Assembly: GCA_027923505.1 (NCBI GenBank)
Contig: BROI01000001.1
Location: 558,001 to 622,000, forward strand
Reading direction: 5' to 3'
Source of the DNA: Mayamaea pseudoterrestris
Lineage: Eukaryota
DNA: 64,000 nucleotides
Shown here: one piece after another, positions 2,663-64,000 of the stretch
How the letters are laid out: each line of letters begins with the position of its first letter
Position numbering within the stretch: the stretch's first letter is position 1
Made by a program: the position numbers and the translations under genes
The notes under the pieces: model-generated
What the model was told of the DNA's origin: nothing
Database searches by the model: none
What the model saw: only the letters and a program-made list of their open reading frames with translations

Positions 2663-5246
2663 ATGGGAAGAGGAGGTCACAAGCCCAAGATGGACGCGGC
2701 CGAACGGCGCCGACTCCGAGCTTTGAAGCGATTCAAACCACACGAGACTGCTGGTCAAGACGATTCAAACGATCAACCCATTGCGCCCTCGGTTCGTTAC
2801 GATGATGATTCACGCGTCGTTGACATGCTTGCCAAGAACGAAGACGAGCTCCTTAGCTTTGTTGCCCTTGTCAACAAGGTGTATGAACAGAAGCTTCACA
2901 AGGTGGCTCCATTCATGACGTTCGTTTTTGTCGGAATGCAGGTAAGTTTGTCGATAGTATATCGTTATAAATTGTGCCGCTCTAACATCAGGCGTTCGGT
3001 AGTCTACAGGAAAGAGTACCATCATGGAGCGGTTCATGGCCGCTCCGTTGAACATTGTGCAAGAAGGCACTGGAACTCGCTGCCCGCTCGATACTACGTG
3101 CATCCATGATGAAACTTGTTCGGAACCCGTCTGCGTGCTATATGGGGAGGAGCTTCTCCCGTCGCAAAGTGGAGAGAACTTGTCAGTCAGTGATGTTTTC
3201 GAAAGCATTGTGGCACATAACAAGCGCTTGGGCGACGAAGATCGTTTCAGCACGAAGCCAATCCATCTCCATTACAGATCCAAGTCCGTGCAGAACATGC
3301 GCTTTGTTGATACGCCTGGAATCATTGAGACGCTGAGCACGGTACGTATAACACGAGTATTAAATCTTGCTTAATGAACCCTTCACTGAATCATTTTGTT
3401 GGAATTATAGGGGAAGGACAATCGTGCTGAGATCAAGTCAATCTTGGTCAGCGAGATGAGCAAGGAAAACACAAAGCTCTGCGTTTTGGTAGAGCCCAAG
3501 GAGTTTGCCACCAATGCGATCATCCGCATCTGCGACGAGACATTCGGCTCGAGGGAGTGGACGCGCAACAGCATTTTCTTGATGACAAAGTTCGACAAGC
3601 AGGCTGAGGATTCGCGCACTGGCAGCAAAGCCAATAAGTTCTTTAGAGAGTTTCTTGAAAATGGCTGCATACCCTACTTGACCATTACGCCAACGTTGCC
3701 AAAGGAAGACCTTGATCCCGAGGAGCTTTTCAATGAGCGCCGCAAGCTTCTTGAGTCTTCCGATCGCTTCGAGAGCGATAGGTTCAAGGTTTGGAAGGAA
3801 CAGCACGACTTGTTCAAGGACATGAACGGCGACGAGGATCTTGATCAGCGAGTCAACGACAAGCTTGGTTTTCCGGTGGCGAAAAAGAAAATGCGAGAAA
3901 TTATGCTCGAAGACACTATCAAGCGTTTACCGGAGGTGATTGCGTCTCTTCGTTCCGAGCTCGACGCTTGTCGCAAAGAGCTGACGATTTTCAAGGAGAA
4001 GGACAAGATGACCGACCCGCAAGAGCTGAAACTCATCGTTTCTGACTTGCTGCATTCGATTCAGGAGCGGCTTCTTGCTTACTTGAATGGTGACTTGAAA
4101 TCGGCGATGGATAATCAAGGCAGGCTCCAGACCCTATTGGATGAAATCGACGAGGAGGAGGATTCGGATTGGGCGCTCCAGGAGCTTAATTTTCATTCGG
4201 AGAATGAGGGAGTCTGGCGCGACAAGATCGTCATGATTGAAGACTACCCGCTTCAACTTATGGCTGATGCAAAATTTCTCGGAGGGAAGCAAGTGCAGCG
4301 AGCCATCACTTTCTTCAAGTACGCCACCCTTGACAGTCTACCAGATCCTTACAAGCTGAAGGATCAAGTGGCAAACATTACAGGCTACATGAACGGAGGC
4401 CTGAACCAAGAAGATTGGGAACGCGCCATGGTGCAAATTACTACCGTGCTGATGAAGGATGTCTCGCATCCAGGCGTCAACTATGTTGTGAAACACATTG
4501 GAAGCATCTTTCGGCGCCTCTTTGACATTGCGCTTGAAGATGTCAAGCACGGAGAGGAAAGGTCATCGGCTTATCAGCACATTCCTACAGCGGTTGAAAA
4601 GTACCTCAAGAGCGAGTTTGACAAAATGCTTTGGGCGCTGATGAAGTTGTCGGCCGACCGCATCCATTGTGCCGTTGAACCAATGTACTCGTCAATCAAT
4701 CCGAATCTTCCAAACTACCATCCTTGTGGTCACATGAAGGATGGCGATTGTCCAACTTATCGTATGGACGAGCACGGCGAGTATGTCTCTGTTCTCACGC
4801 AGAAGCAGGAAGTGGAGGCGAACTGGACCGATTGGGTGAAGAGCCGTCTTCGCGCTTTGACTGATGGGGCTGATAAGGCAAAGGAGTTTCTCAAGAGCGA
4901 GTTTCAAAAGAAGGCTATGAGCAAAAAGTCCTTCCTTCCAAGCGAACGGTCGTCCATGATTACCAACGACGAAGTGGAAATGATTTTGCATTCGTCGTTT
5001 GCTTACCTTGTCGCGCTGACGGAACACATCCTCATTGATTTCGAGTTTCAAATCAATCACTACCTTTATCAGGGATTTAAGCGAGAGCTTTCCAGATCGT
5101 TCATGCGCGCTGGGAGCGAGGCGAATTGGGAAGCGCTCGTGCGCCGCGACGCATCGGTGCGAGTTGCCATTGCGAAACTTGAAGATCAAATGGAAAGCTT
5201 GACAGAGTCGCTCTGTGAAGTTCAAAAACTGAATCAAAAGTTCTAA
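2663..5246 (+). CDS. Dynamin-related GTPase (possibly DRP5/ARC5-like), 3 exons
   Basis: Removing GT-AG introns 2942-3002 and 3342-3410 rebuilds G1 GMQSTGKST, G2 TRCP, G3 DTPG and G4 TKFD. A long helical stalk-like region follows. A CTAAC branch-point-like motif lies at ~2982. Confidence 0.88.
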
Positions 5247-5743
5247 GTGCCTTTTAAACAGACGCGGGATGTAGTTTCGGTCATGAGTTTGTGTTTGTTC
5301 GCGAGTGACTTTTTTATTGTACTCGTAGTCGTACTAGCGAGAGTATGGTAACAAAGGGCGCCTAACTTGTCGGGTATACCACTTGCCACTCCCGCTTCAC
5401 CCGCTACATCATTATCATCGGGTTAACTGTAATTAAGCTACCACTGCAACTTACTGCAACTGTTTGACAAGATTGGAGATATGCATGCAAATCACGCCGC
5501 GAATTTGGGCGCTCATCCAGGCAAGATCGCCAAAAGATGCGACTAACGCTGTGACATGGTCCTTAACCGTAAGTCGGTAGCATTTGTTCCGAGCCGTTGC
5601 GTTTGCTGCTGCACCGCCAAGTCGACAATGGCGGTCGAGTCCTGTGACAGCAATTTTCGCAGCCTTTATTCTACATCGCCTCCTTGTTTGCTTCCTGATT
5701 AATTGACTGCTTCGACCCATTAAATCAATCTACACTCGTCATC

Positions 5744-6729
5744 ATGGGAAATTTGCTTGGCAAGGACAAGCCTCTCAAGGAAGTGCTTCGCGAAAACAAG
5801 CGCATGATCAACAAAGCGGTTCGTGAGCTTGACCGAGAGAAGCGCGGCCTTGAAAACGAGGAGAAGCGACTAACAATTGAAATCAAAAAGGCAGCCAAGG
5901 AGAATCAAATGCAGAGCGTCAAAATAATGGCAAAAGTAAGAATCGAACGAAAGGTGATTCATGCGCGACGAATGTTTAACGGCATGCTGAACCTCAACCG
6001 TTCGTCTCGTTTGCTTTCCTTGTTACTGCCAGGACCTTGTACGGACGCGCCAACATGTCAGCAAGTTTATTGGTGCGTAGACGACATGGAATGGAATGGA
6101 GGTTTGTCGTATATGCGACTCCATGGGGGGTATCCTTCTATTGCTACTTGCAACGCTCGTCATCTGTCTCATTTGTTTCTTTCACTCACCTTTGTTACAG
6201 AAATGCGATCGCATTTGCAAGGCTGCGCCCTCAAGCTGCAAACGGTCAAAAGCCATCAAGCCATGGCGGACGCCATGATGAATACTGCGAATGCCATGAA
6301 GAAGATGAACAAGGCGGTGAACGTGCAAACCATTACGAGTGAGTATGCGGCTTGCTTGTCTTGCGCCATGCTATTCCACACTTAGATTCCATGCTAATTC
6401 AATATCTTGTTACTCTCTGTATTTCAGAAATGATGGCCGAATTTGAAAAGGAGAATGCAAAGACGGAAATGATGCAGGAAGTCATGGGCGACGCCATTGA
6501 TGATGCCTTGGCGGACGATACCATGGCGTCGGAGGAGCAGGAGGCGCAGATTGTCAATCAAGTATTGGACGAAATTGGTATTACCTTTACCAATGAGCTG
6601 CCGGAGGCGAGTCGACAGCAATTAGCGCAAGAGGCTGATGGGCCAGCCAAGGTTGCTGTGGCTGGAGGCGGCGTTGAGGATCCGGCCTTGTCGGATTTGG
6701 AAGCGCGATTGAACAACTTGAAGCGATGA
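5744..6729 (+). CDS. VPS2: ESCRT-III Snf7-family protein Vps2/CHMP2, 4 exons
   Basis: MGNLLGKDKPLKEVLRENKRMINKAVRELDRE...KIMAK|DLVRTR, with C-terminal DLEARLNNLKR (MIM1-like). Introns 5936-6032, 6073-6200 and 6339-6427 are all GT-AG and preserve frame. Confidence 0.92.
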
Positions 6730-11664: not shown

Positions 11665-12998
11665 GTGCAGCAGCAGGAAGCAGCTCTCCATTCGCTGGTT
11701 CGGTCCAAAGATCTTCTATTACCGCTCAGACGTGCTAACCGCTACGACTTTAGCGGACTCTGGCGTTCGCTCAAGTCGACCATGACGAAAGGCATCACCA
11801 CCATGGCACCAAATTGGACCACTGCCTACTACTGTACAGTAATAGATTCTTTTCTTTCGGTAATTTATCGTTTCCGAAGAACTGAAGACTTTGAAAGCGT
11901 AATGGTTAATTTTCCGCTCACCTTTGTCACGGAAAGGTTCGATGCCAACAGAGCGGCCATTCCTTACGTTATCCTTGCGACTTTGACGGTCTTAGTGTCA
12001 CTATCGGCTCCCGAAGGAGCAGCTGACGCTTACAAGATATCTAAAACTGTCATTGTCGCAATATTGACGCTTTTGGTGCTGTATACATTGCTTGGAAGTG
12101 ATCCAGGTATCTGGGAACGTAATTACACGCAACAACTTCTGCTACTGATGCGACGACAATACCCGACAGAGCGGCTGATTTGGAGACCAGAAACCTTTTA
12201 GTGTCAACGGAAGAAGCAGCGAAAGTCGAGCTGTCGCAAGATGAATCCAGCGACGAAAATAATGGCGAGTCTGACAATCTCCAATGCGCACCTTTACGCA
12301 TTTCGGCTAGCGAATCACAATGTCCTAGGCGCCGAAAGTACTGCAACCTTTGTCAAACATGGCCACCATTGAGATCACATCACTGCAAAGCCTGTAACCA
12401 ATGCGTCGCTACCTTTGACCATCATTGCAGTTTCATTGGCGTTTGCATTGGCGAGCGCAACCACGCTCGGTTCCTTGCCTTTCTTATACTGCAACTGCTT
12501 GCCTTTTGGCAATGCTGGCAAATCATTTCGACGAGCCCCTTTGGAATATGGAGCTTGCTTGTGCATAATACTCGCACAAACTCGTCATACGAACTACTCG
12601 CTTCTCTTTACATGACTGTGGCCAAGACTTGCATATATTTATTGACAGTGCTGGCGTTGATCATGGTGATTATACATGTATTATTGGCATTGACCAATAG
12701 CACAACGTTTGAATTCGCAAAAGCATCGCACTTGGACTATATGCAAGGGATGGATGCCATGGCGATGCCATTTAGTAAAGGCAACATGTGCGCTAACTTG
12801 AAAGCCTTTGTCCAGCGCGACGATTGCTTTCAACCATTCATGTTTCGGCCTGGCGCGCGACGACATGACAATGACGAGACTGTCCATCAGGCTTCAGCGT
12901 GGACACCCATAGATTGGTCTTTACCAACGGTTGCGCCGAGAGACAGCGAAGACTGGTGGAACCATCCGTGGCGCAATAAGTATTGGAGTTGCTGCTAA
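11665..12998 (+). CDS. DHHC-type palmitoyl acyltransferase (exon junction or frameshift near 12100-12200 unresolved; start approximate)
   Basis: CNLCQTWPPLRSHHCKACNQCVATFDHHCSFIGVCIGERNHARF, a TTFE motif and TM helices. The upstream ORF supplies TM segments and the SDPG motif. Confidence 0.85.
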
Positions 12999-13171
12999 AA
13001 ATCTACATGGTCAAGTCCATTTGTAATGCCCTTTTGCATGCTAATGATCATCAACCTTTTAACTGTACTTAATCTTTTCTTGTTAGCTGGAACAGTAGTG
13101 CTACTCATTCAATCGATTGGTAACCTGAACGACTTATTGCAGCCAATTCATTACGGTCGTAGCATTTGTCG

Positions 13172-14578
13172 CTACACCGACAACGTTCCTTTGCTGCTAG
13201 CTGTCGCTCCGCCTCGACGCATGTCTACCATACTGCAGTATCTGAGCGTCTCTCCAAATGCCATGGCAGTAGCTACTACTGTATCTTCCAAACTCCCAGG
13301 CACCAACTCGACAATGTGCACTGTCATGCGAGCATTGGCAACGAGCGACTCGAGTGCATGCTCAAACATCTCCAAGGACAAGTCACCCACCATTTCCTCG
13401 TCGTCTCGCGCTAGCGACAAGTTATGCGTCAAGCATGGGCGATTCGACAAGTCCATGACAACTTGCACTCGAGCCGCACCGCTTGCCATTGTCGAGCACC
13501 ACATGCGATTGAGCCCAGCCTTGGTTCCAAGTGCCTCAACAAGGCATTGACCAAGCGCGATGGAAACATCCTCGGCCGTGTGGTGCTCATCAATGTACAA
13601 GTCACCCTGGCAGGATAGATCCAAACTAGTTCCGGCGTGCTTGGCAAGCTCCATAAAGAATGTATCGAGCGTTTTGATTCCCGAAGACACCTTGACGCCA
13701 GCAACACCACCATCGACTTTCAAAGTGACTAAAATGCTTGTTTCCTTTGTTGTTCGCGAAAGTGTTCCTTGTCGAACTTGGTCCAGTCCGGCCTTGTGAT
13801 TGTCACTGCGTGCGCCGTAGAGCGCGTCTAGTTTGGAACAATGTGCGTCGCAGGTGACACCATCAAGCAGGTTACGCAAAGCACGACTCGCTGCCTTGAA
13901 GGCTGACTCGACAATGTGGTGCGCATTGTGTCCACGAACCTTGTGTAGCGAAATGTTCAAGTGCGATGCCTCTGCCAAGCCAGCAAAGAATCGTTCAAGC
14001 TTGGCAGTCTCCATGGAGCCAATATGCGTCCGCCCCGTTCTTGGATATATTCCAAATGGCGCCAATGTATATTTAGTCAATTTGCCTGGCTCCAAAGCGA
14101 CAGTAAGTTCGCATTCTACGAGGGCCTCGTCGAGGGGGCAGGAGAAGCGAGAATTGCCGATTGTTCCAGGATGCAGTTTCGACGTTTCCATCACGAGACG
14201 CTTGATTTCGGCTCCAAATTGACTTCCAACAAAAAACATGAGCTCGCCTTGATCAGTAGTCGCGTTGCGATTGCGGCTCTCATGGTCTTTGGAAGCAGCA
14301 TCTCCAACGATGATGGAAACGCCGATTTGTGCGTGAGAGTTGAACTGATCGATCATGTGGTCGAGGTAACCAACTCCTGTCAAAATCGGACCCTTTGGCT
14401 TTTGTAAGTCTTCGACAGATATCACACACGTGTTTGATTGCATCATGATGTATTGACGTGCTGGTATCTGCGGGATCAGCCGAGCTCGGCTCCACGACGG
14501 AAATTGTGGCCGTCGTCGCGTCGGTCGCGCATGAGTAAGTTTCGGTGTGACAGAGCGTGATGAAATTGCTTGTCGCAT
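13172..14578 (-). CDS. HIS3: Imidazoleglycerol-phosphate dehydratase with two tandem IGPD domains (start uncertain: 14578 or 14446)
   Basis: Domain 1: TGVGYLDHM, PLDEAL, NAHHIVESAFKA. Domain 2: RTTKET, GDLYIDEHHTAED, DLSNRP, C-terminal SSKGTL. Confidence 0.88.
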   Translation of the reverse strand: MRQAISSRSVTPKLTHARPTRRRPQFPSWSRARLIPQIPARQYIMMQSNTCVISVEDLQKPKGPILTGVGYLDHMIDQFNSHAQIGVSIIVGDAASKDHESRNRNATTDQGELMFFVGSQFGAEIKRLVMETSKLHPGTIGNSRFSCPLDEALVECELTVALEPGKLTKYTLAPFGIYPRTGRTHIGSMETAKLERFFAGLAEASHLNISLHKVRGHNAHHIVESAFKAASRALRNLLDGVTCDAHCSKLDALYGARSDNHKAGLDQVRQGTLSRTTKETSILVTLKVDGGVAGVKVSSGIKTLDTFFMELAKHAGTSLDLSCQGDLYIDEHHTAEDVSIALGQCLVEALGTKAGLNRMWCSTMASGAARVQVVMDLSNRPCLTHNLSLARDDEEMVGDLSLEMFEHALESLVANARMTVHIVELVPGSLEDTVVATAMAFGETLRYCSMVDMRRGGATASSKGTLSV

Positions 14579-15100
14579 CGGTTATGGCGACGAAAATTAA
14601 TGAGCAAGCATTTTCGACCCAACAACTGCGGCGGGATTACAGTGTATATCTGTATGTGTATGAGCAAACAAAGAAGGATGATACGAGCCATATACGACGT
14701 AATGCTGCAGTGCATGATGTAAACATGATTGGAGAAGCGCTTGATTGGCAATCGTCTGCTCGTCTAATCGTGCCGACTCACCGACCCGAGAACCGAGGAC
14801 TTGCAGATTTTCTCTCGCGATTGACGAGCAAGCAAGTTAAATTTGGAGACTACACGCTCTGTATATAGTGCGCTGGGTGGCGTGTCAATATCACTGCTGT
14901 TGGATGCCGGCGGTTCCATCGTTGTCGATTCTGCCGTCGACAATTCGGTCGATGTCGTTGGTAACTTGGTTTCCGGTGATTCAATCGTTGACAATGCGGC
15001 CGTTGACGATGCTGTGCATGACGTTCAGAAATTTCTCGACTTTAGCTCTGACATAGTGCTGTATTAGTTCTAGATACATAGTTATGTCAATTTCTATTTC

Positions 15101-17596
15101 CTATCCAAAGGCCAGCTTCTTGAGTTCGTTGTTTTGCTTCTTCTTTTTCTTGTTGCCTGCTCCACCAACATTACTCATTGTTGCTGTATTCGCCTCCACT
15201 CTCGTGCTGTTCGGCTGGTTAGCAGCAACATTCCGCACACCAGCCTGCTTATTACCGGCACTCGCCAAAGACGACCCGTTTATTCCACCCCAAGCCAATT
15301 TAGCTTTGCCTGATTGTATTGTGCTTGCTGAGGGAGCCAACGAAGGGCTGGTGGCAAAGTTTCTCATTGCTGCCATGGAACTACCGGTAGGTGCGTGCGC
15401 AGCTTCAGCGTTCAAGGCACCATTCCTCATTCTTTTCAAATGGTCCATATAACTCAATGCCTTTGCAGATGCATGATGATCCGGACAAGACTGGACAAGC
15501 CCCGGAATGAAGCTCCAAAAGTAATCGTCCGCGTATCCATTGTCAAACAGTGAGGCCGCATGATCAACGAAAGCCTCCGACTCCAGCTCCCCAGCAACAA
15601 ACTCTCGCGTGAACTTTTTGAGTAGTTTAAACTTTATCGTACCCATGGCGGCCTTCATATCTTCGACGGTAGCAACATCACTCGCTGTCGGTGCGTTTGC
15701 CATATGCATCTTGGCCTTGGGGCGTGGCTGTGATGACACTGGTGGCGCTGGAAAGTCCTGCTCACTGCTGAATGACGGTGGAGCCTTTTTGGTCAATGGC
15801 TGCAGGTTTGTTCGCTTTGCTGACGATGAGTATGCCAGCGCAGAATTACCAACCAAAGATGGAAACATGTCCGCTGACAATGACAATGGCTTCGAATTCA
15901 TCTTTTTCATCAAGGCATTCGCCGATGAGTAGCTAGGTTGCGGCGGTCCCGCGGATGGGCCGAGTGATGGAAAATTATCGGACGAAAGACTTGACGCGTT
16001 AACACCTCGAGATGTTGATTGTCCTGGTGCCAGAAAAGAAGCTACTGGAGTAGCCAACCTTGCTGCCGTGTTTGCTGCCACTGCATTGTATCCGTTACTA
16101 CCTGAACCACTCCTTCCAGTCCCAATGCGATTGACCCCAACCTGTAGCTTGGCTGATTTGGGTTTAATATTTGCTGGTAACGTTGGAAAGTCCTCCACTG
16201 TCACTGCTCCAGCTGGCTTGACTCTAGCCGCCCGTTTGATCGAAATGCCATCAGTCCATCCCATGCGTAACTGCTGTGACGACTGCGCAGTTGCAACAGC
16301 CACTTCTTCGTTGCTCGCTTGCAGCGTCGGAAAGGCTTCATCCTCTTGATGCGACGAATCCATATTGTCCCGCATGGCAGCTGCCAATACTCGTAGCTCT
16401 GCAGTTCGTTCAACGTGCCGCGGGTGCAAGGCCAATTCACCCTGCGAGGCTGGAAGCGCCGCCGGCACAAAGGCTTCTCCATCCAGTCCATAGTCAAAAT
16501 CACTGTTATCAGGAACATGTTGATTGTTTTGATTCAAGTCATTATTTGCAAATCGCCGCACTCTAAACTGCAACTGTATCTTGCCGTGCGACGTTACGTT
16601 GTGCACTTGACGCTCATGGTCCGCAAGGTCAATGTCATGTGCAAAGACAACAAAGCGTGCTGCCAAGCACTGCGGGTCATGACAGGCGTAATGCTGTCTA
16701 TCAAAATGCTTTTCAAGTGCCGAATAGTCGCGAAAATACTGATCGTGCATGCCCATTTGTTCGCAAACATGGCACTTGTAGTGATTCTTGGTCAAGTGCT
16801 TGTGCAGCTCGGCCAAGTCGTAGAATCGAGTCGGCCGACAAAACTCGCAAACCGGATGACCCGTAAACCCAGAGTCGGCTCCGTCTCCCTTGGCCAAATG
16901 CTTATTCAGTTGTGCTGGTGTGAATCGCTGAAGCCGACTGACAAAGTCGCGGGGATGTTCCGTGCAAAGGTTGCAAAGAACCAAGCGATGAGAAACGCGC
17001 AAATGATCCTGTAGGGCGCGTAGGGCCTTTTTCGCGGATACAATATTGCTAGAAGCAGCAGCAGATTGTTTTTGTTTTTCTTCGTCAGCAAAGGAAGACT
17101 GACTTCTATTCGCATTCATGCTAACAATCAGCGAGCCATCAAAGCTACATCCTCGATGGTTGCAGGGAAAGCGCAGAAGCGGCTGAATCTCCTTGTGCAA
17201 ATAGTCGACTGGAAAGAACATGCCTACATTCGGCTTGTATACAAAGTCGTTTCCAAGCTCATTGCCCCAAATTTGGTATTCGTCGAAAGCCTTGGACGAA
17301 TCTTGCGCGTCAACAATGACTTGCTCGTGTTCCGCCTTGCAAATGGGGCATTTGTTATCGTGATGCAGAAAACGTAGACGCAAGACGCAAACTGGACAAA
17401 TCTCATTATGATTGCAAGGCATGATTGACGTGTAAATCAAGTCAGAGTAGCAGACCAAGCAGTGCTGCGTAACGCTACCAGCTTCAGCCGTCAAGACGAG
17501 AGTGCGAACGTTTTCTGTGAGCTTTGGAAGTTGATTGTTAGGACTGGAAAGAGACGTAGCAGCAGTAGCCGCAGCATCTGTACTTGATGATGCCAT
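15101..17596 (-). CDS. ZNF598: RING and C2H2 zinc-finger E3 ubiquitin ligase, ZNF598/HEL2-like
   Basis: RING CLVC...CNHNEICPVCVLRLR...CPICK, followed by GHPVCEFC, CHVC, YFRDY..LEKHF, C..PQC...RFVVF. Low-complexity tail has repeated FP(T/S)L motifs. Confidence 0.88.
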   Translation of the reverse strand: MASSSTDAAATAATSLSSPNNQLPKLTENVRTLVLTAEAGSVTQHCLVCYSDLIYTSIMPCNHNEICPVCVLRLRFLHHDNKCPICKAEHEQVIVDAQDSSKAFDEYQIWGNELGNDFVYKPNVGMFFPVDYLHKEIQPLLRFPCNHRGCSFDGSLIVSMNANRSQSSFADEEKQKQSAAASSNIVSAKKALRALQDHLRVSHRLVLCNLCTEHPRDFVSRLQRFTPAQLNKHLAKGDGADSGFTGHPVCEFCRPTRFYDLAELHKHLTKNHYKCHVCEQMGMHDQYFRDYSALEKHFDRQHYACHDPQCLAARFVVFAHDIDLADHERQVHNVTSHGKIQLQFRVRRFANNDLNQNNQHVPDNSDFDYGLDGEAFVPAALPASQGELALHPRHVERTAELRVLAAAMRDNMDSSHQEDEAFPTLQASNEEVAVATAQSSQQLRMGWTDGISIKRAARVKPAGAVTVEDFPTLPANIKPKSAKLQVGVNRIGTGRSGSGSNGYNAVAANTAARLATPVASFLAPGQSTSRGVNASSLSSDNFPSLGPSAGPPQPSYSSANALMKKMNSKPLSLSADMFPSLVGNSALAYSSSAKRTNLQPLTKKAPPSFSSEQDFPAPPVSSQPRPKAKMHMANAPTASDVATVEDMKAAMGTIKFKLLKKFTREFVAGELESEAFVDHAASLFDNGYADDYFWSFIPGLVQSCPDHHASAKALSYMDHLKRMRNGALNAEAAHAPTGSSMAAMRNFATSPSLAPSASTIQSGKAKLAWGGINGSSLASAGNKQAGVRNVAANQPNSTRVEANTATMSNVGGAGNKKKKKQNNELKKLAFG

Positions 17597-46030: not shown

Positions 46031-46032
46031 GC

Positions 46033-46600
46033 TCAGTTTTGCAATACGGCCCCACACTACCTAGACTACAATAGCAGAGCTACCGTCAAAACCCACCAGT
46101 GCGCTACATGACCCACCAGTGCACTACATGCAGAGATACTGGTGGAGCAAAGGCTCTAGAGGTAATTGCATCAAAAGTGCAGCTGGTTCCTGGTAAGCGG
46201 CATGTATCTACTCAGCTATGCGATACGGCCCCACACTACCTTGACTACAATAGCAGAGCTACCGTCAAAACCCACCAGTGCACTACATGTCCCACCAGTG
46301 TACTACATGCAGAGGTACCAGCGGAGCAAAGGCTCTGGAGGTAATTGCATCGAAAGTGCAGCTGGTTCCTGGTAAGCCGCATGTATCTACTCAGCTATGG
46401 GATACGGCCCCACACACTACCTAGACTACAATACAGAGCTACCGTCAAAACCCACCAGTGGGCTACATGACCCACCAGTGCACTACATGCAGAGGTACCA
46501 TAGGAACAAAGGCTTTGGAGGTAATTGCATTGAAAGTGCAGCTGGTTCCTGGTAAGCCGCATGTATCTACTCAGTTATGCAATACGGCCCCACACTACAA
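46033..46600. repeat. Satellite A, ~179-bp monomer, about 3 copies
   Basis: ATACGGCCCCACACTACC...GAGCTACCGTCAAAACCCACCAGTG...GCAGCTGGTTCCTGGTAAGC repeats at ~46044, 46223, 46402 and 46582. Confidence 0.95.
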
Positions 46601-46959
46601 GCAGCAATGAAAGAGGTCTCAGTCGCACAGGTAACACGTCCGTCCGCGCAAGCCCCGGGGCAGTGCCACAGACCGTGAGGTCCCCTTGTCTGACATGCTT
46701 CACATGGGAGCATTGCCGCTGATCTGTTGTGGCGCAGCGGCAGTTTGAGTAACGCTGCGATAGTCTCGAATCACCAGCTATTCATGCCGTTCCAACGATA
46801 GCCATCAACCGCAACGGCAAGCAGCCCATGATGCAATCCAATATATATATACTATATGCATACACCCTTCTAACCATACTTCATTAGTGAAACTCTGTAT
46901 TGTAATCTATGCAATGCAAACATTACTCTTTCACTAATCAATCCCCCTACGTACCAGTA

Positions 46960-49900
46960 CCAAATTATGGAATCATACCACTACAACGCCCCGTGCCCTG
47001 GCCACCCAACAACCCAATGAGTCAGGCAAAACATGTCCAGGGTGTGCCATTGACATGAGGATGGGCTGAAATGGTGCAAAACGGACTGCCTGGAGGCCTA
47101 CAGCATGGATTGGTCTGCTAGATGGGTGTGGCCAACACCCCAAATTATGGAATCATACCACTACAATGCCCCGTGCCCTGATCACCCAACAACCCAATGA
47201 GTCATGCAAAACATGTCCAGGGTGTGCCATTGACATGAGGATGGTCTGACATGGTGCAAAACGGACTGCCTGGAGGCCTACACCATCTGCAAGATGGGTG
47301 TGGCCAACACCCCAAATTATGGAATCATACCACTACAATGCCCCATGCCCGGCAACCCAACAACCCAATGAGTCAGGCAAAACATGTCCAGTGTGTGCCA
47401 TTGACATGCGGATGGGCTGAAATGATGCAAAACAGACTGCCTGGAGGCCTACACCATCTGCAAAATGGGTGTGGCCAACACCCCAAATTATGGAATCATA
47501 CCACTACAATGCCCCGTCCCCTGATCACCCAACAACCCAATGAGTCATGCAAAACATGTCCAGGGTGTGCCATTGACATAAGGATGGTCTGACATGGTAC
47601 AAAACGGACTGCCTGGAGGCCTACAGCATGGAATGGTCTACAAGATGGGTGTGGCCAACACCCCAAATTATGGAATCATACCACTACAATGCCCCATGCC
47701 CTGATCACCCAACAACCCAATGAGTCAAGCAAAACATGTCCAGGGTGTGCCATTGACATGAGGATGGGCTGAAATGATGCAAAACGGACTGCCTGGATGC
47801 CTACAGCATGGAATGGTCCACAAGATGGGTGTGGCCAACACCCCAAATTATGGAATCATACCACTACAATGCCCCATGCCCTGGCCACCCAACAACCCAA
47901 TGAGTCAGGCAAAACATGTCCAGGGTGTGCCATTGACAGGAGGATGGGCTGAAATGGTGCAAAACGGACTGCCTGGAGGCCTACACCATCTGCAAAATGG
48001 GTGTGGCCAACACCCCAAATTATGGAATCATACCACTACAATGCCCCATCCCCTGATCACCCAATAACCCAATGTGTCATGCAAAACATGTCCAGGGTGT
48101 GCCATTGACATGAGGATGGTCTGACATGGTACAAAACGGACTGCCTGGAGGCCTACAGCATGGAATGGTCTACAAGATGGGTGTGGCCAACACCCCAAAT
48201 TATGGAATCATACCACTACAATGCCCCATGCCCTGGCCACCCAACAACCCAATGAGTCAGGCAAAACATGTCCAGGGTGTGCCATTGACATGAGGATGGG
48301 CTGAAATGGTGCAAAACGGACTGCCTGGAGGCCTACACCATCTGCAAAATGGGTTGTGGCCAACACCCCAAATTATGGAATCATACCACTACAATACCCC
48401 GTCCCCTGATCACCCAACAACCCAATGAGTCATGCAAAACATGTCCAGGGTGTGCCATTGACATGAGGATGGTCTGACATGGTGCAAAACGGACTGCCTG
48501 GAGGCCTACACCATCTGCAAGATGGGTGTGGCCAACACCCCAAATTATGGAATCATACCACTACAATGCCCCATGCCCGGCAACCCAACAACCCAATGAG
48601 TCAGGCAAAACATGTCCAGTGTGTGCCATTGACATGAGGATGGGCTGAAATGGTGCAAAACGGACTGCCTGGAGGCCTACAGCATGGATTGGTCTACAAG
48701 ATGGGTGTGGCCAACACCCCAAATTATGGAATCATACCACTACAATGCCCCATGCCCTGGCCACCCAACAAACCAATGAGTCAGGCAAAACATGTCCAGG
48801 GTGTGCCATTGACATGAGGATGGGCTGAAATGGTGCAAAACGGACTGCCTGGAGGCCTACACCATCTGCAAAATGGGTGTGGCCAACACCCCAAAACACA
48901 TTCGCGGGGCGGGGAGGTGGTAGGATCAATGGTTTTACTATGCCTGCAATGACTTTTGCGCGCTCCGCGCGCACAAACATTGCCAAAATGCAGACGCAGC
49001 ATGCTAGATTGACTAAATTGACTGGCCCGGGTAGAACATGTCGCAGAACCACTGATCATTTATGATTCATTGGAGTAGACTGTACGAACGCCAAGAAGTA
49101 CATCATGTCGCACCGCGGGACACAATTAATCTCGCGTGAAGCATTCAAACGCAAGGAGTACTACTATTTGGGAACGCTAAGGAGCATGTCGCAGCGCGGG
49201 ACACATTAATCTCGTGAAGCATGTCCGGATATATCCTACCACAATTATGGAATCATACCACTACAATGCCCCATCCCCTGATCACCCAATAACCCAATGA
49301 GTCATGCAAAACATGTCCAGGGTGTGCCATTGACATGAGGATGGTCTGACATGGTACAAAACGGACTGCCTGGAGGCCTACAGCATGGAATGGTCCGGCT
49401 CAGGGCGGATGCTTCGAGGAGACTGCCTTGGGGACACTCATAAGATACCCTTATGAGTACACTGTGATCGATAGTCACGTCATCAGTGGTGCGGGGAGAG
49501 AAGAATGGGAACAGCTACCGACAACGGGCAGACCACATGCCGATGTTGATCGGGTTGCCTCCCATTCCTTTGGTTAGCTTGCCGACCTTGTTGTCTAGCA
49601 AGCTCTCTGTTGTTTGTCCCACCCACTCACCCGGGTTGTGGCGAATCCTCCTCACAGGATTCGCTCCAGTCATCATTGATGACGTGGTTGTTGCTCCAGG
49701 GACCCGGAGTTTGCACTCCGAGTCCACATAGCAAATGCAACCACAGGACATCGCTGCCGACTTTGGGCAGCTGGCCGGGCGCAGCCTAGCACGCGGAAGG
49801 AAACAGCCGAGCGACGGAGGGCAATCTGCACTTGTGCTGATTGTCTGCAAGATGGGTGTGGCCAACACCCCAAATTATGGAATCATACCACTACAATGCC

Positions 49901-50853
49901 CCATGCCCTGGCCACCCAACAACCCAATGAGTCAGGCAAAACATGTCCAGGGTGTGCCATTGACATGTGGATGGGCTGAAATGGTGCAAAACGGACTGCC
50001 TGGAGGCCTACACCATCTGCAAAATGGGTGTGGCCAACACCCCAAATTATGGAATCATACACCCGTCCCCTGATCACCAAACAACCCAATGAGTCATGCA
50101 AAACATGTCCAGGGTGCGCCATTGACATGAGGATGGTCTGACATGGTACAAAACGGACTGCCTGGAGGCCTACAGCATGGAATGGTCTACAAGATGGGTG
50201 TGGCCAACACCCCAAATTATGGAATCATACCACTACAATGCCCCATGCCCTGGCCACCCAACAACCCAATGAGTCAGGCAAAACATGTCCAGGGTGTGCC
50301 ATTGACATGTGGATGGGCTGAAATGGTGCAAAACGGACTGCCTGGAGGCCTACACCATCTGCAAAATGGGTGTGGCCAACACCCCAAATTATGGAATCAT
50401 ACCACTACAACGCCCCGTCCCCTGATCACCCAACAACCCAATGAGTCATGCAAAACATGTCCAGGGTGCGCCATTGACATGAGGATGGTCTGACATGGTA
50501 CAAAACGGACTGCCTGGAGGCCTACAGCATGGAATGGTCTACAAGATGGGTGTGGCCAACACCCCAAATTATGGAATCATACCACTACAATGCCCCATGC
50601 CCTGGCCACCCAACAACCCAATGAGTCAGGCAAAACATGTCCAGGGTGTGCCATTGACATGAGGATGGGCTGAAATGGTGCAAAACGGACTGCCTGGAGG
50701 CCTACACCATCTGCAAAATGGGTGTGGCCAACACCCCAAATTATGGAATCATACCACTACAATGCCCCGTCCCCTGATCACCCAACAACCCAATGAGTCA
50801 TGCAAAACATGTCCAGGGTGTGCCATTGACATGAGGATGGTCTGACATGGTAC
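46960..50853. repeat. Satellite B, 172-bp and 180-bp monomer variants, interrupted by two unique inserts
   Basis: CAAATTATGGAATCATACCACTACAATGCCCC anchor at 46961, 47141, 47313, 47484, 47664, 47844, 48016, 48196, 48369, 48541, 48720, then 49871-50737. Confidence 0.97.
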
Positions 50854-51770: not shown

Positions 51771-54700
51771 ATCATTATTCAGGCTGCGCTACAAGATGGT
51801 AGCCTAGGCTGGTGTCTCAGGGCATGGCAATGTATTTGGTGACAACTTGTCACCAGTCTCAGCCCGCAGATGACGTGACATTCAAACGCCCCTACAGGAA
51901 GCCCTGTAGGTGCCCAAAATACACCCAAATGGTGCCACAATTATTATTGTGGCTGCGCTACAAGTTGGTTTGCTTGACTGGTGTCTCAGGGGACAGCAAT
52001 GATATTGGTGAGAACTTGTCACCAGTCTCAGCCTGCGGATGCTGTGACATTCAAACGCCCCTACAGCAGGCCATGAATATACCCAAATGACACCAGATTG
52101 GTGCCAACATCATTATTCAGGCTGCGCTACAAGATGGTATGCCTGGCTAGTGTCTCAGGGGACAGCAATGACATTGGTGACAACTTGTCACCAGTCTCAG
52201 CCTTCAGATGCCGTGACATTCAAACGCCCCTACAGCAAGCCCTGTATATACCCAAAATACACCAGAATGGTGCCAACATCATTATTCAGGCTGCGCTACA
52301 AGATGGTAGGCTTGGCTGGTGTCTCAGGGGACGGCAATGATATTGGTGACAACTTGTCACCAGTCTCAGCCTGCAGATGCCGTGACATTCAAACGCCCCT
52401 ACAGCAGGCCCTGTATACACCCAAATGACACCAGAATGGTGCCAACATCATTATTCAGGCTGCGCTACAAGATGGTATGCCTGGCTAGTGTCTCAGGGGA
52501 CAGCAATGATATTGGTGACAACTTGTCACCAGTCTCAGCCTGCAGATGCCGTGACATTCAAACGCCCCTACAGCAAGCCCTGTAGGTGCCCAAAATACAC
52601 CAGAATGGTGCCAACATCATTATTCAGGCTGCGCTACAAGATGGTATGCCTGGCTAGTGTCTCCGGGGACAGCAATGATATTGGTGACAACTTGTCACCA
52701 GTCTCAGCCTTCAGATGCCGTGACATTCAAACGCCCCTACAGCAGGCCATGTATACACCCAAATGACACCAGAATGGTGCCAACATCATTATTCAGGCTG
52801 CGCTACATGATGGTATGCCTGGCTAGTGTCTCAGGGGACGGCAATGATATTGGTGACAACTTGTCACCAGTCTCAGCCTGCAGATGCCGTGACATTCAAA
52901 CGCCCCTACAGCAGGCCATGTATACACCCAAATGACACCAGAATTGTGCCAACATCATTATCCAGGCTGCGCAACAAGATGGTATGCCTGGCTAGTGTCT
53001 CAGGGGACGGCAATGATATTGGTGACAACTTGTCACCAGTCTCAGCCTGCAGATGCCGTGACATTCAAACGCCCCTACAGCAGGCCATGTATACACCCAA
53101 ATGACACCAGAATATTGCCAACATCATTATTCAGGCTGCGCTACAAGATGGTATGCCTGGCTAGTGTCTCAGGGGACGGCAATGATATTGGTGACAACTT
53201 GTCACCAGTCTCAGCCTGCAATGCCGACATAATGCCAACATCATTATTCACCCAATCCGAGTGGTGGCAACATCATTATTCAGGCTGCGCTACAAGATGG
53301 TATGCCTGGCTAGTGTCTCAGGGGACGGCAATGATATTGGTGACAACTTGTCACCAGTCTCAGCCTGCAGATGCCGTGACATTCAAACGCCCTTCAGCAG
53401 GCCATGTATACACCCAAATTACACCAGAATGGTGCCAACATCATTATTCAGGCTGCGCTACAAGATGGTATGCCTGGCTAGTGTCTCAGGGGACGGCAAT
53501 GATATTGGTGACAACTTGTCACCAGTCTCAGCCTGCAGATGCCGTGACATTCAAACGCCCCTACAGCAGGCCATTTATACACCCAAATGACACCAGAATG
53601 GTGCCAACATCATTATTCAGGCTGCGCTACAAGATGGTATGCCTGGCTAGTGTCTCAGGGGACGGCAATGATATTGGTGACAACTTGTCACCAGTCTCAG
53701 CCTGCAGATGCCGTGACATTCAAACGCCCCTACAGCAGGCCATGTATACACCCAAATGACACCAGAATATTGCCAACATCATTATTCAGGCTGCGCTACA
53801 AGATGGTATGCCTGGCTAGTGTCTCAGGGGACGGCAATGATATTGGTGACAACTTGTCACCAGTCTCAGCCTGCAGATGCCGTGACATTCAAACGCCCCT
53901 ACAGCAGGCCATGTATACACCCAGATGACACCAGAATGGTGCCCACATCATTATTCAGGCTGCGCCACAAGTGGGTATGCCTGGCTAGTGTCTCAGGGGA
54001 CGGCAATGATATTGGTGACAACTTGTCACCAGTCTCAGCCTGCAGATGCCGTGACATTCAAACGCCCCTACAGCAGGCCATGTATACACCCAAATGACAC
54101 CAGAATGGTGCCAACATCATTATTCAGGCTGCGCAACAAGATGGTATGCCTGGCTAGTGTCTCAGGGGACGGCAATGATATTGGTGACAACTTGTCACCA
54201 GTCTCAGCCTGCAGATGCCGTGACATTCAAACGCCCCTACAGCAGGCCATGTATATACCCAAATGCCACCAGAATATTGCCAACATCATTATTCAGGCTG
54301 CGCTACAAGATGGTATGCCTGGCTAGTGTCTCAGGGGACGGCAATGATATTGGTGACAACTTGTCACCAGTCTCAGCCTGCAGATGCCGTGACATTCAAA
54401 CGCCCCTACAGCAGGCCATGTATACACCCAAATGACACCAGAATGGTGCCAACATCATTATTCAGGCTGCGCTACAAAATGGTATGCCTGGCTAGTGTCT
54501 CAGGGGACGGCAATGATATTGGTGACAACTTGTCACCAGTCTCAGCCTGCAGATGCCGTGACATTCAAACGCCCCTACAGCAGGCCATGAATTCACCCAA
54601 ATACACCAGAATATTACCAACATCATTATTCAGGCTGCGCTACAAGATGGTATGCCTGGCTAGTGTCTCAGGGGACGGTAATGATATTGGTGACATCTTG

Positions 54701-57700
54701 TCACCAGTCTCAGCCTGCAGATGCTGTGACATTCAAATGCCCCTACAGCAGGCCATGTATACACCCAGATGACACCAGAATGGTGCCAACATCATTATTC
54801 AGGCTGCGCTACAAGTGGGTATGCCTGGCTTTTGTCTCAGGGGACGGCAATGATATTGGTGACAACTTGTCACCAGTCTCAGCCTGCAGATGCCGTGACA
54901 TTCAAACGCCCCTACAGCAGGCCATGTATACACCCAAATGACACCAGAATGGTGCCAACATCATTATTCAGGCTGCGCAACAAGATGGTATGCCTGGCTA
55001 GTGTCTCAGGGGACGGCAATGATATTGGTGACAACTTGTCACCAGTCTCAGCCTGCAGATGCCGTGACATTCAAACGCCCCTACAGCAGGCCATGTATAC
55101 ACCCAAATGACACCAGAATGGTGCCAACATCATTATTCAGGCTGCGCTACAAGATGGTATGCCTGGCTAGTGTCTCAGGGGATGGCAATGATATTGGTGA
55201 CAACTTGTCACCAGTCTCAGCCTGCAGATGCCGTGACATTCAAACGCCCCTACAGCAGGCCATGTATATACCCAAATGCCACCAGAATATTGCCAATATC
55301 ATTATTCAAGCTGCCCTACAAGATGGTATGCCTGGCTAGTGTCTCAGGGGACGGCAATGATATTGGTGACAACTTCTCACCAGTCTCAGCCTGCAGATGC
55401 CGTGACATTCAAACGCCCTTACAGCAGGCCATGTATACACCCAAATGACACCAGAATGGTGCCAACATCATTATTCAGGCTGAGCAACAAGATGGTATGC
55501 CTGGCTAGTGTCTCAGGGGACGGCAATGATATTGGTGACAACTTGTCACCAGTCTCAGCCTGCAGATGCCGTGACATTCAAACGCTCCTACAGCAGGCCT
55601 TTAGGTGCCCAAAATACACCAGAATATTGCCAACAAACTATTCAGGCTGTGCTACAAGAAGGTATGCCTGACTAGTGTCTCAGAGGATGGTAATGATATT
55701 GGTGACAACTTGTCACCAGTCTCAGCCTGCAGATGCCGTGACATTCAAATGCCCCTACAGCAGGCTATGTATACACCCAATTGACACTGGAATGGTGGCA
55801 ACATCATTATTCAGGCTGCGCTACAAGATGGTCTTGTTTCAGGGGACAGCAATGACATTGGTGACAACTTGTCACCAGTCTCAGCCTGCGGATGCTGTGA
55901 CATTCAAACGCCCCTACAGCAGGCCATGAATATACCCAAATGACACCAGATTGGTGCCATCATCATTATTCAGGCTGCGCTACAAGATGGTATGCCTGGC
56001 TAGTGTCTCAGGGGACAGCAATGACATTGGTGACAACTTGTCACCAGTCTCAGCCTTCAGATGCCGTGACATTCAAACGCCCCTACAGCAGTCCATGTAT
56101 ACACCCAAATGACACCAGAATGGTGCCAATATCATTATTCAAATTGCGCTACAAGATGGTATGCCTAGCTATTGTCTCAGGGGACAGCAATGATATTGGT
56201 GACAACTTGTCACCAGTCTCAGCCTGCAGATGCCGTGACATTCAAACGCCCCTACAGCAGGCCATGTATACACCCAAATGACACCAGAATGGTGCCAACA
56301 TCATTATTCAGGCTGCGCTACAAGATGGTATGCCTGGCTAGTGTCTCAGGGGATGGCAATGATATTGGTGACAACTTGTCACCAGTCTCAGCCCGCAGAT
56401 GCCGTGACATTCAAACGCCCCTACAGCAGGCCCTGTAGGTGCCCAAAATACACCAGAATGGTGCCAACATCATTATTCAGGCTGCGCTACAAGATGGTAT
56501 ACCTGGCTAGTGTCTCAGGGGATGGCAATGATATTGGTGACAACTTGTCACCAGTCTCAGCCTGCAGATGCCGTGACATTCAAACGCCCCTACAGCAGGC
56601 CATGTATATACCCAAATGCCACCAGAATATTGCCAATATCATTATTCAAGCTGCCCTACAAGATGGTATGCCTGGCTAGTGTCTCAGGGGACGGCAATGA
56701 TATTGGTGACAACTTCTCACCAGTCTCAGCCTGCAGATGCCGTGACATTCAAACGCCCTTACAGCAGGCCATGTATACACCCAAATGACACCAGAATGGT
56801 GCCAACATCATTATTCAGGCTGAGCAACAAGATGGTATGCCTGGCTAGTGTCTCAGGGGACGGCAATGATATTGGTGACAACTTGTCACCAGTCTCAGCC
56901 TGCAGATGCCGTGACATTCAAACGCCCCTACAGCAGGCCCTGTAGGTGCCCAAAATACACCAGAATATTGCCAACATCATTATTCAGGCTGCGCTACAAG
57001 ATGGTATGCCTGGCTAGTGTCTCAGGGGATGGCAATGATATTGGTGACAACTTGTCACCAGTCTCAGCCTGCAGATGCCGTGACATTCAAATGCCCCTAC
57101 AGCAGGCCATGTATACACCCAGATGACACCAGAATGGTGCCCACATCATTATTCAGGCTGCGCTACAAGTGGGTATGCCTGGCTAGTGTCTCAGGGGACG
57201 GCAATGATATTGGTGACAACTTGTCACCAGTCTCAGCCTGCAGATGCCGTGACATTCAAACGCCCCTACAGCAGGCCATGTATACACCCAAATGACACCA
57301 GAATGGTGCCAACATCATTATTCAGGCTGCGCTACAAGATGGTATGCCTGGCTAGTGTCTCAGGGGACGGCAATGATATTGGTGACAACTTGTCACCAGT
57401 CTCAGCCTGCAGATGCCGTGACATTCAAACGCCCCTACAGCAGGCCATGTATACACCAAAATGACACCAGAATGGTGCCAACATCATTATTCAGGCTGCG
57501 CTACAAGATGGTATGCCTGGCTAGTGTCTCAGGGGACGGCAATGATATTGGTGACAACTTGTCACCAGTCTCAGCCTGCAGATGCCGTGACATTCAAACG
57601 CCCCTACAGCAGGCCATGTATACACCCAAATGACACCAGAATGGTGCCAACATCATTATTCAGGCTGCGCTACAAGATGGTATGCCTGGCTAGTGTCTCA

Positions 57701-63700: not shown

Positions 63701-64000
63701 GTATACACCCAAATGACACCAGAATGGTGCCAACATCATTATTCAGGCTGCGCAACAAGATGGTATGCCTGGCTAGTGTCTCAGGGGACGGCAATGATAT
63801 TGGTGACAACTTGTCACCAGTCTCAGCCTGCAGATGCCGTGACATTCAAACGCCCCTACAGCAGGCCATGTAGGTGCCCAAATACACCAGAATGGTGCCA
63901 ACATCATTATTCAGGCTGCGCAACAAGATGGTATGCCTGGCTAGTGTCTCAGGGGACGGCAATGATATTGGTGACAACTTGTCACCAGTCTCAGCCTGCA
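51770..64000. repeat. Satellite C, 169-bp monomer, about 72 head-to-tail copies, continues past the window end
   Basis: Consensus ATGACACCAGAATGGTGCCAACATCATTATTCAGGCTGCGCTACAAGATGG...TGGTGACAACTTGTCACCA...GCCATGTATACACCCAA. ORF starts recur every 169 bp. Confidence 0.99.

Follow-up and report, generated by a model that had tools for sequence, protein, structure and literature searches.

In the 64-kb stretch of Mayamaea pseudoterrestris DNA analysed here (the window; contig BROI01000001.1, positions 558,001 to 622,000 of the forward strand), an uninterrupted open reading frame (ORF) on the reverse strand, at 13172..14578, codes for a protein of 468 amino acids, the stop codon lying within these coordinates. 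Its two halves are both related to imidazoleglycerol-phosphate dehydratase (IGPD), a textbook cage enzyme and a target of herbicides and antimicrobials, and the subject of this analysis is the way in which these halves share the residues of the IGPD active site. The protein called from the source genome (P0002) starts at M45 of the ORF and has 424 amino acids, and all close homologues start likewise, so that the first 44 codons are probably leader. With this start, no N-terminal targeting extension stands ahead of domain 1 (D1). The coordinates of the ORF, its domains and their motifs are collected in Table 1.

The first-pass annotation of this DNA had seen two IGPD domains in the ORF, and profile searches bore this out: the Pfam family IGPD (PF00475) matches in two stretches with 193.2 bits against a cut-off of 27, and each half matches solved IGPDs. 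Using HMMER, domain 2 (D2) can be aligned over its whole length with Arabidopsis IGPD1 (2f1d_A, E 2.6e-35), in which the numbering of the chain is identical to the Arabidopsis (At) numbering of the literature that is used below. D1 aligns with Arabidopsis IGPD2 (4qnk_A, E 4.4e-14), from residue 35 of 4qnk_A as printed, or approximately At 39 in literature numbering when read via the 2f1d_A row. A canonical IGPD profile of our own, built from 7 canonical sequences, scores D2 with 160.2 bits and D1 with 57.3 bits. All 13 NCBIfam HisB/IGPD equivalog models match the ORF twice and all remain below their cut-offs (best NF002111, 204.9 versus 231), and since these curated models fall short, pathway reconstructions can wrongly call this step missing or duplicated. 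The model for bifunctional HisB (NF003937), also below its cut-off, is matched via its IGPD part alone (profile positions 164-355). Compared with each other, D1 and D2 show no significant similarity (BLASTP E 4.2), because the motifs that they keep do not overlap. The linker between them carries a motif, (W/Y)G-x-x-S-x-(S/N)-x-K (window 13800-13830, residues 250-262), that is conserved across the family and could be a helical remnant of the former C loop of D1.

Modelling of the monomer, also proposed in the first-pass annotation, gave a confident AlphaFold2 (AF2) structure (predicted local distance difference test, pLDDT, 93.7; predicted template modelling score, pTM, 0.93) with two IGPD folds, of which D1 lacks strand beta1. 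The characteristic four-helix bundle between two four-stranded sheets was recognized by Foldseek (4mu4, E 2.9e-14, template modelling score, TM, 0.90 of the target). Solved IGPD chains reached a TM of 0.82-0.94 of the target and at most 0.43 of the query, thus each solved chain covers half of the model.

Table 1. The tandem IGPD gene and its motifs in the window. At, Arabidopsis numbering; fractions give the relatives that keep a residue, over non-gap cells (see text for the sets)
Feature	Position	Strand	Remarks
Whole ORF	13172..14578	-	468 aa with stop; first 44 codons probably 5' leader
Likely coding sequence from M45	13172..14446	-	424 aa plus stop; start as in P0002 and homologues
D1, residues 45-239	13862..14446	-	diverged IGPD fold without strand beta1; putative 'chain A' role
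D1 LDHM	14354..14365	-	H74 = At H47 (Mn1 ligand, chain A); invariant, 120/120
D1 region replacing DxHHxxE, SKDHESRNRNATTDQGELMFFVG	14225..14293	-	H73, H74, E77 lost
D1 PLDEAL, residues 148-153	14120..14137	-	D150 = At D108
D1 LERFF	13985..13999	-	R196 at the position of Mn2 ligand H145; variable in the family
D1 NAHHIVESAFK, residues 218-228	13895..13927	-	H220, H221, E224, K228 = At H169, H170, E173, K177; 198/198 doubles
Linker, residues 240-268	13775..13861	-	two short helices predicted; replaces the D1 C loop; conserved (W/Y)G-x-x-S
D2, residues 269-468	13175..13774	-	near-canonical IGPD; putative 'chain A'' and 'chain C' roles
D2 RTTKET, residues 275-280	13739..13756	-	E279 = At E21, proposed acid-base catalyst; 197/198
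D2 LDTFF (for LDHML)	13655..13669	-	T306 at the H47 position; E310 replaces Q51
D2 DEHHTAED, residues 330-337	13568..13591	-	H332, H333, E336 = At H73, H74, E77 (chain A')
D2 NRM	13502..13510	-	R358 = At R99 (phosphate binding, chain C); 189/189
D2 MASGAARV (for APLDEALI)	13466..13489	-	D108, E109 lost (G367, A368)
D2 SNRP	13436..13447	-	R380 = At R121 (phosphate binding, chain C); 180/180
D2 FEHAL	13352..13366	-	H407 = At H145 (Mn2 ligand, chain A'); 173/174
D2 PGSLEDTVVATAM in place of GENSHHIIEATFK	13262..13300	-	H169, H170, E173, K177 lost (E431, D432, V435, M439)
D2 C loop RRGGATASSKG (SSKG 461-464)	13187..13219	-	S461, K463 = At S199, K201 (chain C); 167/167

The canonical active site binds two manganese ions, and Table 2 of Bisson 2015 (PMC4509728) lists H47, H169, E173 and H74 as ligands of Mn1 and H170, H145, H73 and E77 as ligands of Mn2. 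For the Acanthamoeba enzyme, in which the numbering is that of At minus 7, the published chain assignment (PMC6029752) comprises H40A, H48A, D101A, H162A, H163A, E166A and K170A from chain A, H66A', H67A', E70A' and H138A' from chain A', and R92C, R114C, S191C and K193C from chain C. D108, which holds the Mn2 water, carries the chain A label in the Acanthamoeba paper, a legend in Bisson 2015 adds Q51 to chain A, and in the solved enzymes that these two papers describe A' and C are different subunits (PMC4509728, PMC6029752).

The residues of the tandem protein are partitioned along the same lines. The chain A set (H47, Q51, H55, D108, H169, H170, E173, K177) is kept in D1 as H74, Q78, H82, D150, H220, H221, E224 and K228, and its positions in D2 are replaced by T306, E310, G367, E431, D432, V435 and M439, H55 being kept in D2 by chance as H314, a Glu in most relatives. 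The chain A' set (H73, H74, E77, H145) is found in D2 (H332, H333, E336, H407) and none of it in D1; the chain C set (R99, R121, S199, K201) is kept in D2 alone (R358, R380, S461, K463), and the catalytic E21 also survives in D2 only (E279). Thus, of the 8 Mn ligands that a canonical domain possesses, D1 has 4 and D2 the other 4, and the set is complete for the pair only. In the D1 region that replaces DxHHxxE, N103, R104 and Q110 are newly conserved, and HHxxE is absent from helix alpha2 whichever register is used, the HMMER and AF2 registers differing here. The chain C positions of D1 are G141 (R99) and E163 (R121), with the linker where the C loop would be expected. R144 was considered as the counterpart of R99 and rejected, since the AF2 strand register and the HMMER alignment place R99 at G141, a position that is R in 32/120 family members. 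In D2, SLEDTVV stands for SHHIIEA.

These assignments agree with most of what the first-pass annotation had read from the motifs. DHM, PLDEAL and NAHHIVE are kept in D1 and DxHHxxE is missing, all at the places that it had given, while for D2 the alignment confirmed that RTTKET, DEHHTAED, TVH (H421) and SSKG are retained and that DHM, PxDEAL and NxHHxxE are lost. When each half is mapped onto the metal ligands of Arabidopsis IGPD, neither domain has all of them. One point needed correction: the annotation had counted a Ser in D1 as the loss of the T-L-H histidine, and S210 does align with At H159 of 'TLH', but H159 is absent from the ligand list, the metal-binding residue being H145 in the 'VEH145FF' helix (Table 2, PMC4509728). 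The pattern survives this correction, as the position of the real ligand is H407 in D2 and R196 in D1. The central idea of the annotation, namely that the two fused domains each contribute only one side of the di-Mn site and that half of the sites survive, matches the published chain assignment and, as described below, the invariance in the family, as far as can be judged from sequence. Its two-chain site was right about the A and A' split but left out the third contributor, chain C (R99, R121 and the Ser and Lys of the C loop; PMC6029752), all of which lies in D2. As the chain C residues occur in D2 only, a live site would require the D2 domains of two polypeptides, and for this reason a single polypeptide would not be self-contained and oligomerization would be obligatory. 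The predicted live site retains every residue reported to contact the triazole inhibitor.

The first-pass annotation had proposed a survey of stramenopile orthologues for the same reciprocal loss. A near-length protein search, in which 8000 candidates were scored, gave 400 matches, and the best 120 of these were 388-529 amino acids long with 84-97% query coverage. The named sources among them are the diatoms Thalassiosira, Skeletonema, Cyclotella, Mediolabrus, Chaetoceros, Odontella and Synedra, and several are transcripts of the Marine Microbial Eukaryote Transcriptome Sequencing Project (MMETSP) that were called 'type:complete' and span both halves. In the alignment of these full-length doubles all kept residues are invariant (120/120), and E173 (catalytic, like E21) and K177 (phosphate-binding, like R99 and R121) in D1, and E21, R99, R121, S199 and K201 in D2, each occur exactly once per polypeptide. 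An all-against-all representative search added 99 clusters at E values up to 1e-30, with the dinoflagellate Yihiella, a pelagophyte and Aureococcus among the named members, and an Atlas look-up gave one Bacillariophyta and one Chlorophyta cluster, which serve as a lead only. When our canonical profile was run over 264 proteins from the near-length and representative searches, 198 split into two domains; these come from diatoms, pelagophytes, a dinoflagellate and green-alga-like contigs. Residues in these 198 doubles were counted over non-gap cells, and the rows represent relatives and not independent events. Besides the counts in Table 1, D1 has H47 in 152/152 and D108 and E109 in 176/176 cases, and D2 has H73 and H74 in 194/194 and E77 in 191/192. 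Of the 4 A-face ligands, not one of the 198 D2 domains has more than 2, and the alpha4 HHxxE is absent from all of these domains. A literal HHxxE occurs exactly once, in alpha4, in 197/198 D1 domains, the remaining one having a second by chance, within a variable loop, and exactly once, in alpha2, in 176/198 D2 domains; the D2 exceptions are 15 that carry a second HHxxE at the H145 helix and 7 fragments without any. Automated hmmalign calls of H73/H74/E77 in 9/198 D1 domains were dismissed as alignment artefacts in the variable loop, as a literal second HHxxE is present in 1/198 only. Going by these alignments, the pattern is more than chance, and the predicted proteins show the two-domain split IGPD to be the standard diatom form. 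Some doubles have N-terminal extensions of 250-770 residues, namely P0169 (672 amino acids), P0174 (810), P0178 (1023, Pelagophyceae sp.) and P0184 (1206).

Taken together, the gene probably encodes a working IGPD, as a fused pair of specialized domains with a composite di-Mn site. How such a protein would assemble can be considered from the canonical particle, in which the C loop is essential and the sites reportedly assemble around the fourfold axis (Glynn 2005). Metal-free canonical IGPD is a trimer, and metal joins the trimers into a cage with 432 symmetry, according to sources that include PMC7284861, which also gives the sheet order as beta1-beta2-beta4-beta3. From this architecture, the sites of the canonical 24-mer would be located between trimers. 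In the tandem protein, a complete di-Mn site would require contact of the A face of one D1 with the A' face of one D2, and another D2, as subunit C, would have to cover this D1/D2 site with its arginines and C loop, so that at least two polypeptides would contribute to each site. Since the eight corners of a cube are two-colourable, D1 and D2 trimers could alternate on them; with four trimers of each kind, the result would be a 12-mer of tetrahedral symmetry in which 12 interfaces are live and 12 are dead. The dead joint would combine D2 as A with D1 as A' and D1 as C, which is the residue set that is seen to be lost. We therefore consider it most likely that each polypeptide has a single live site, and probable that 12 chains form a cage with 12 such sites. 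As for its origin, tandem fusion may have turned the C terminus of D1 into a linker that could no longer be used as C loop; with that loop gone, sites in which D1 is subunit C would have died, and the other residues of those sites would then have decayed. Structure being the basis of this logic, evolution could have arrived more than once at this partition and at this order of domains, with the A-type first and the A'/C-type last. The complete picture, an obligately two-faced IGPD cage in diatoms and several other algal groups that is an alternating-trimer tetrahedral 12-mer with half of the Mn sites fossil, metal-dependent assembly at every second joint, a design forced by burial of the C loop, and the same partition and order possibly arisen repeatedly, is a tentative one that may well turn out wrong in some part.

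Modelling of two copies with 4 Mn provided an interface with an ipSAE of 0.67, versus 0.36 for the best control; the mark used for this score is reached by 21/30 solved homo-pairs and 0/23 single chains. The runs share at least 20% of their contacts and the partner has a pLDDT of at least 77. The confident contacts are those of D2 to D2, including R380/P381 (At R121/P122). Because IGPD oligomers have already been solved, the score may reflect memory.

There are several points that speak against the proposed enzyme and cage. The D2:D2 contacts look twofold-symmetric and are not specifically predicted by the tetrahedral model, and Foldseek returned no solved chain that covers both domains. The 12-mer needs subunit C to be in the same trimer as A', which is an assumption. 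The legend of Fig. 2B in Bisson 2015 (PMC4509728) labels the catalytic residue 'Glu21A', and at face value this would leave the live site without E21. We think that E21 is supplied together with the alpha2 helix of the chain to which it belongs, A', since the sheet order puts the beta1-beta2 turn beside alpha2 and the pseudo-twofold partner of E21, D108, is labelled chain A. Moreover, the support from a single IGPD gene comes from another diatom, T. pseudonana, by way of a review, the transcript support comes from MMETSP transcripts of homologues, and the tandem IGPD is known here from sequence and predicted models.

Some of these points would suit a protein in which the composite site is right and the assembly is different, for instance a smaller or other oligomer such as a dimer, a tetramer or a cage without homotypic trimers. 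The cage geometry was derived from published descriptions alone, the sole interface model has the twofold-looking contacts, D1 has no strand beta1, and with the linker a new structured element is added. However, both domains keep the IGPD fold, D2 being near-canonical, and the live site needs three domains placed as in the canonical particle, which makes a different assembly rather unlikely, although it is the alternative that we take most seriously. That the protein is a pseudoenzyme, without catalysis at either interface and with a role in structure or regulation, imidazole acetol phosphate being made by a different enzyme, could explain why it stays below the cut-offs of all 13 NCBIfam models and why each single domain is without half of the ligands. 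Decay would predict something other than what is found, since in 120/120 doubles one copy, and no more, is kept of each residue for catalysis, metal binding and phosphate binding, and the review of Bromke 2013 gives a single IGPD gene for T. pseudonana; we consider a pseudoenzyme very improbable. It is no easier to believe that one domain works alone, with a mononuclear or altered metal site, and that the other is a scaffold. D2 would be the candidate, given its near-canonical score and its E21, first HHxxE motif and C loop, but it lacks H47, D108, H169, H170, E173 and K177, and it is precisely these that D1 keeps, invariantly. A mere scaffold would not need these ligands, which argues against such a role for D1.

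The possibility that two neighbouring genes, or a collapsed duplication, are read as one frame can be practically dismissed, in spite of gene models that seem to suggest it. On L001, a GC-rich, alga-like marine metagenome contig, prokaryote-style gene callers split a related locus (5100-6633) into D1 and D2 as two 'complete' genes in the same frame, and on GC-rich marine contigs D1-like and D2-like 'complete genes' lie 9 nt apart in one frame; in GenBank, the Phaeodactylum gene is a partial model of D2 only. Against this stands that no stop codon separates the halves here, that the best 120 homologues, complete transcripts included, share the single-frame architecture, and that on L001 an inferred GT..AG intron of 120 nt (5894-6013, phase 1) joins D1 and D2 in frame. 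Assembled contigs from four independent runs of one study showed no joint across the stretch, and one spans 12919-15196; these contigs are silent on expression. The D1 of L001 has a transit-peptide-like N-terminal extension, which the diatom proteins do not have.

About 27 single-half entries were seen, and those that were followed up were not free-standing. The D2-like P0199 and the D1-like P0264 clusters share contigs as adjacent ORFs, and the cluster mate of P0194 is a 454-amino-acid double. For Phaeodactylum tricornutum, GenBank holds EEC47960 and EEC47966, identical 'partial' proteins of 202 amino acids with the D2 half only (partial model P0451), and the full double is P0013 with 448 amino acids. 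These duplicate D2-only entries probably explain why the Bromke 2013 review, where it treats this step, speaks of 'two ORFs' in P. tricornutum and one IGPD gene in T. pseudonana. In P0239 of Aureococcus anophagefferens (464 amino acids), a D2-type domain (255-462) stands alone behind an unrelated N-terminal part of 250 amino acids; the gene model may be wrong here, or the protein may be a genuine exception that has no fused D1.

The history of the fusion was examined with a quick maximum-likelihood tree of 82 rows, with support from the Shimodaira-Hasegawa-like approximate likelihood ratio test (SH-aLRT) only. Of the alga-type rows, the 25 of D1 make up a clade (SH-aLRT 100) and so do the 25 of D2 (99), and the same inner pairs recur in both, matching groupings that are expected of one old fusion diverging as a unit. 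Both clades stand apart from the plant-cyanobacterial one. A further double, P0207 (389 amino acids, on an 8-kb contig of the European Nucleotide Archive), is AT-rich and has almost no linker, yet shows the same partition and domain order. Its halves fall among canonical bacterial sequences in the free tree. An independent origin of P0207 does not follow from this, as the approximately unbiased test leaves room for a single clade of all D1 (p 0.617) as well as for one of all D2 (p 0.25), and the constrained all-D1 tree was 7.35 log-likelihood units better than the free tree. Searching prokaryote species genomes with P0207 found no relative, the best 80 matches of an alignment query of prokaryote genomes were all single-domain hisB loci, and a near-length protein search with P0207 gave no other double among the matches listed and no close relative among the 120 best.

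At the dead interfaces, the first-pass annotation had suggested that the faces could have been repurposed. This found little support, since most of the lost positions are variable across the family, which gives little sign of a new function. Newly conserved residues at lost positions are a Gly at the D108 position of D2 (135/175) and an acidic residue at its H170 position (130/168); together with N103, R104 and Q110 of D1, these might form a metal-free latch.

To place the tandem protein, we compared it with canonical monofunctional IGPD (EC 4.2.1.19), as in plant HISN5/IGPD1-2, yeast His3 and bacterial and archaeal HisB (PDB 2F1D, 4MU4, 6FWH). The fold (Foldseek TM 0.82-0.94 of the target, as above) and the full inventory of residues are the same, and presumably so is the reaction, at a site built from three subunits. 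The canonical enzyme has both faces on every chain and 24 identical chains with 24 sites in 432 symmetry, whereas the tandem protein splits the inventory over two fused domains, so that one of its two kinds of interface would be able to bind Mn, and its D1 is without strand beta1 and C loop. Bifunctional HisB (histidinol-phosphate phosphatase-IGPD) and other his fusions likewise contain IGPD, but bifunctional HisB joins a different enzyme to an intact IGPD, while here two IGPD copies with complementary losses are joined. An internal half-domain duplication of IGPD was reportedly described by Sinha in 2004. The tandem protein would represent another round of duplication and fusion in the same fold lineage; the internal duplication, as presented in PMC7284861, left both (D/N)xHHxxE motifs in each chain, whereas the tandem domains have each lost one. 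In the alignment reported by Del Duca 2020 (PMC7284861), none of the 535 sequences lacks HHXXE.

Duplication with complementary motif loss is also seen in the monomeric herpesvirus dUTPase and in heterodimeric ABC proteins with one degenerate ATP site. In these, as proposed for the tandem IGPD, the site at the interface of a homo-oligomer turns asymmetric, with one live and one decayed copy. Their folds and chemistry are unrelated, and the tandem IGPD would still have to assemble into a large cage, its site requiring a third domain. No account of a tandem IGPD came up in full-text searches of the literature, which did not reach subscription journals, supplements or database annotations.

The doubles reveal a large and ecologically dominant set of algae without any complete single IGPD domain, although both metal motifs are stated to be universal in PMC7284861. 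If the proposed composite site holds, the protein would be a clean natural case of a symmetric homo-oligomer becoming an obligate pseudo-hetero-oligomer. The 12-mer would then have a mass of approximately 550 kDa for its 12 chains, with 2 Mn per 46-kDa chain, and neither half would complement alone. For annotation, the D2-only Phaeodactylum model in GenBank and the halving of related genes by prokaryote-style callers are relevant, and work with the gene as an auxotrophy marker in diatoms has to include its two halves.

The gene is flanked by two intron-free ORFs, a DHHC palmitoyltransferase at 12180-12998 (+) and a ZNF598-like RING/C2H2 protein at 15101-17596 (-), and these neighbours indicate an ordinary nuclear locus, not a histidine cluster. 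Farther along the window, from 44 kb on, there is no ORF of at least 400 amino acids. Repeats of 172-180/352 bp at 46032-50853 precede a satellite array that occupies 51771-64000, up to the end of the window, in a region with strong AT skew, and that consists of at least 63 copies of a 169-bp unit with a 338-bp higher-order period and 95% matches.

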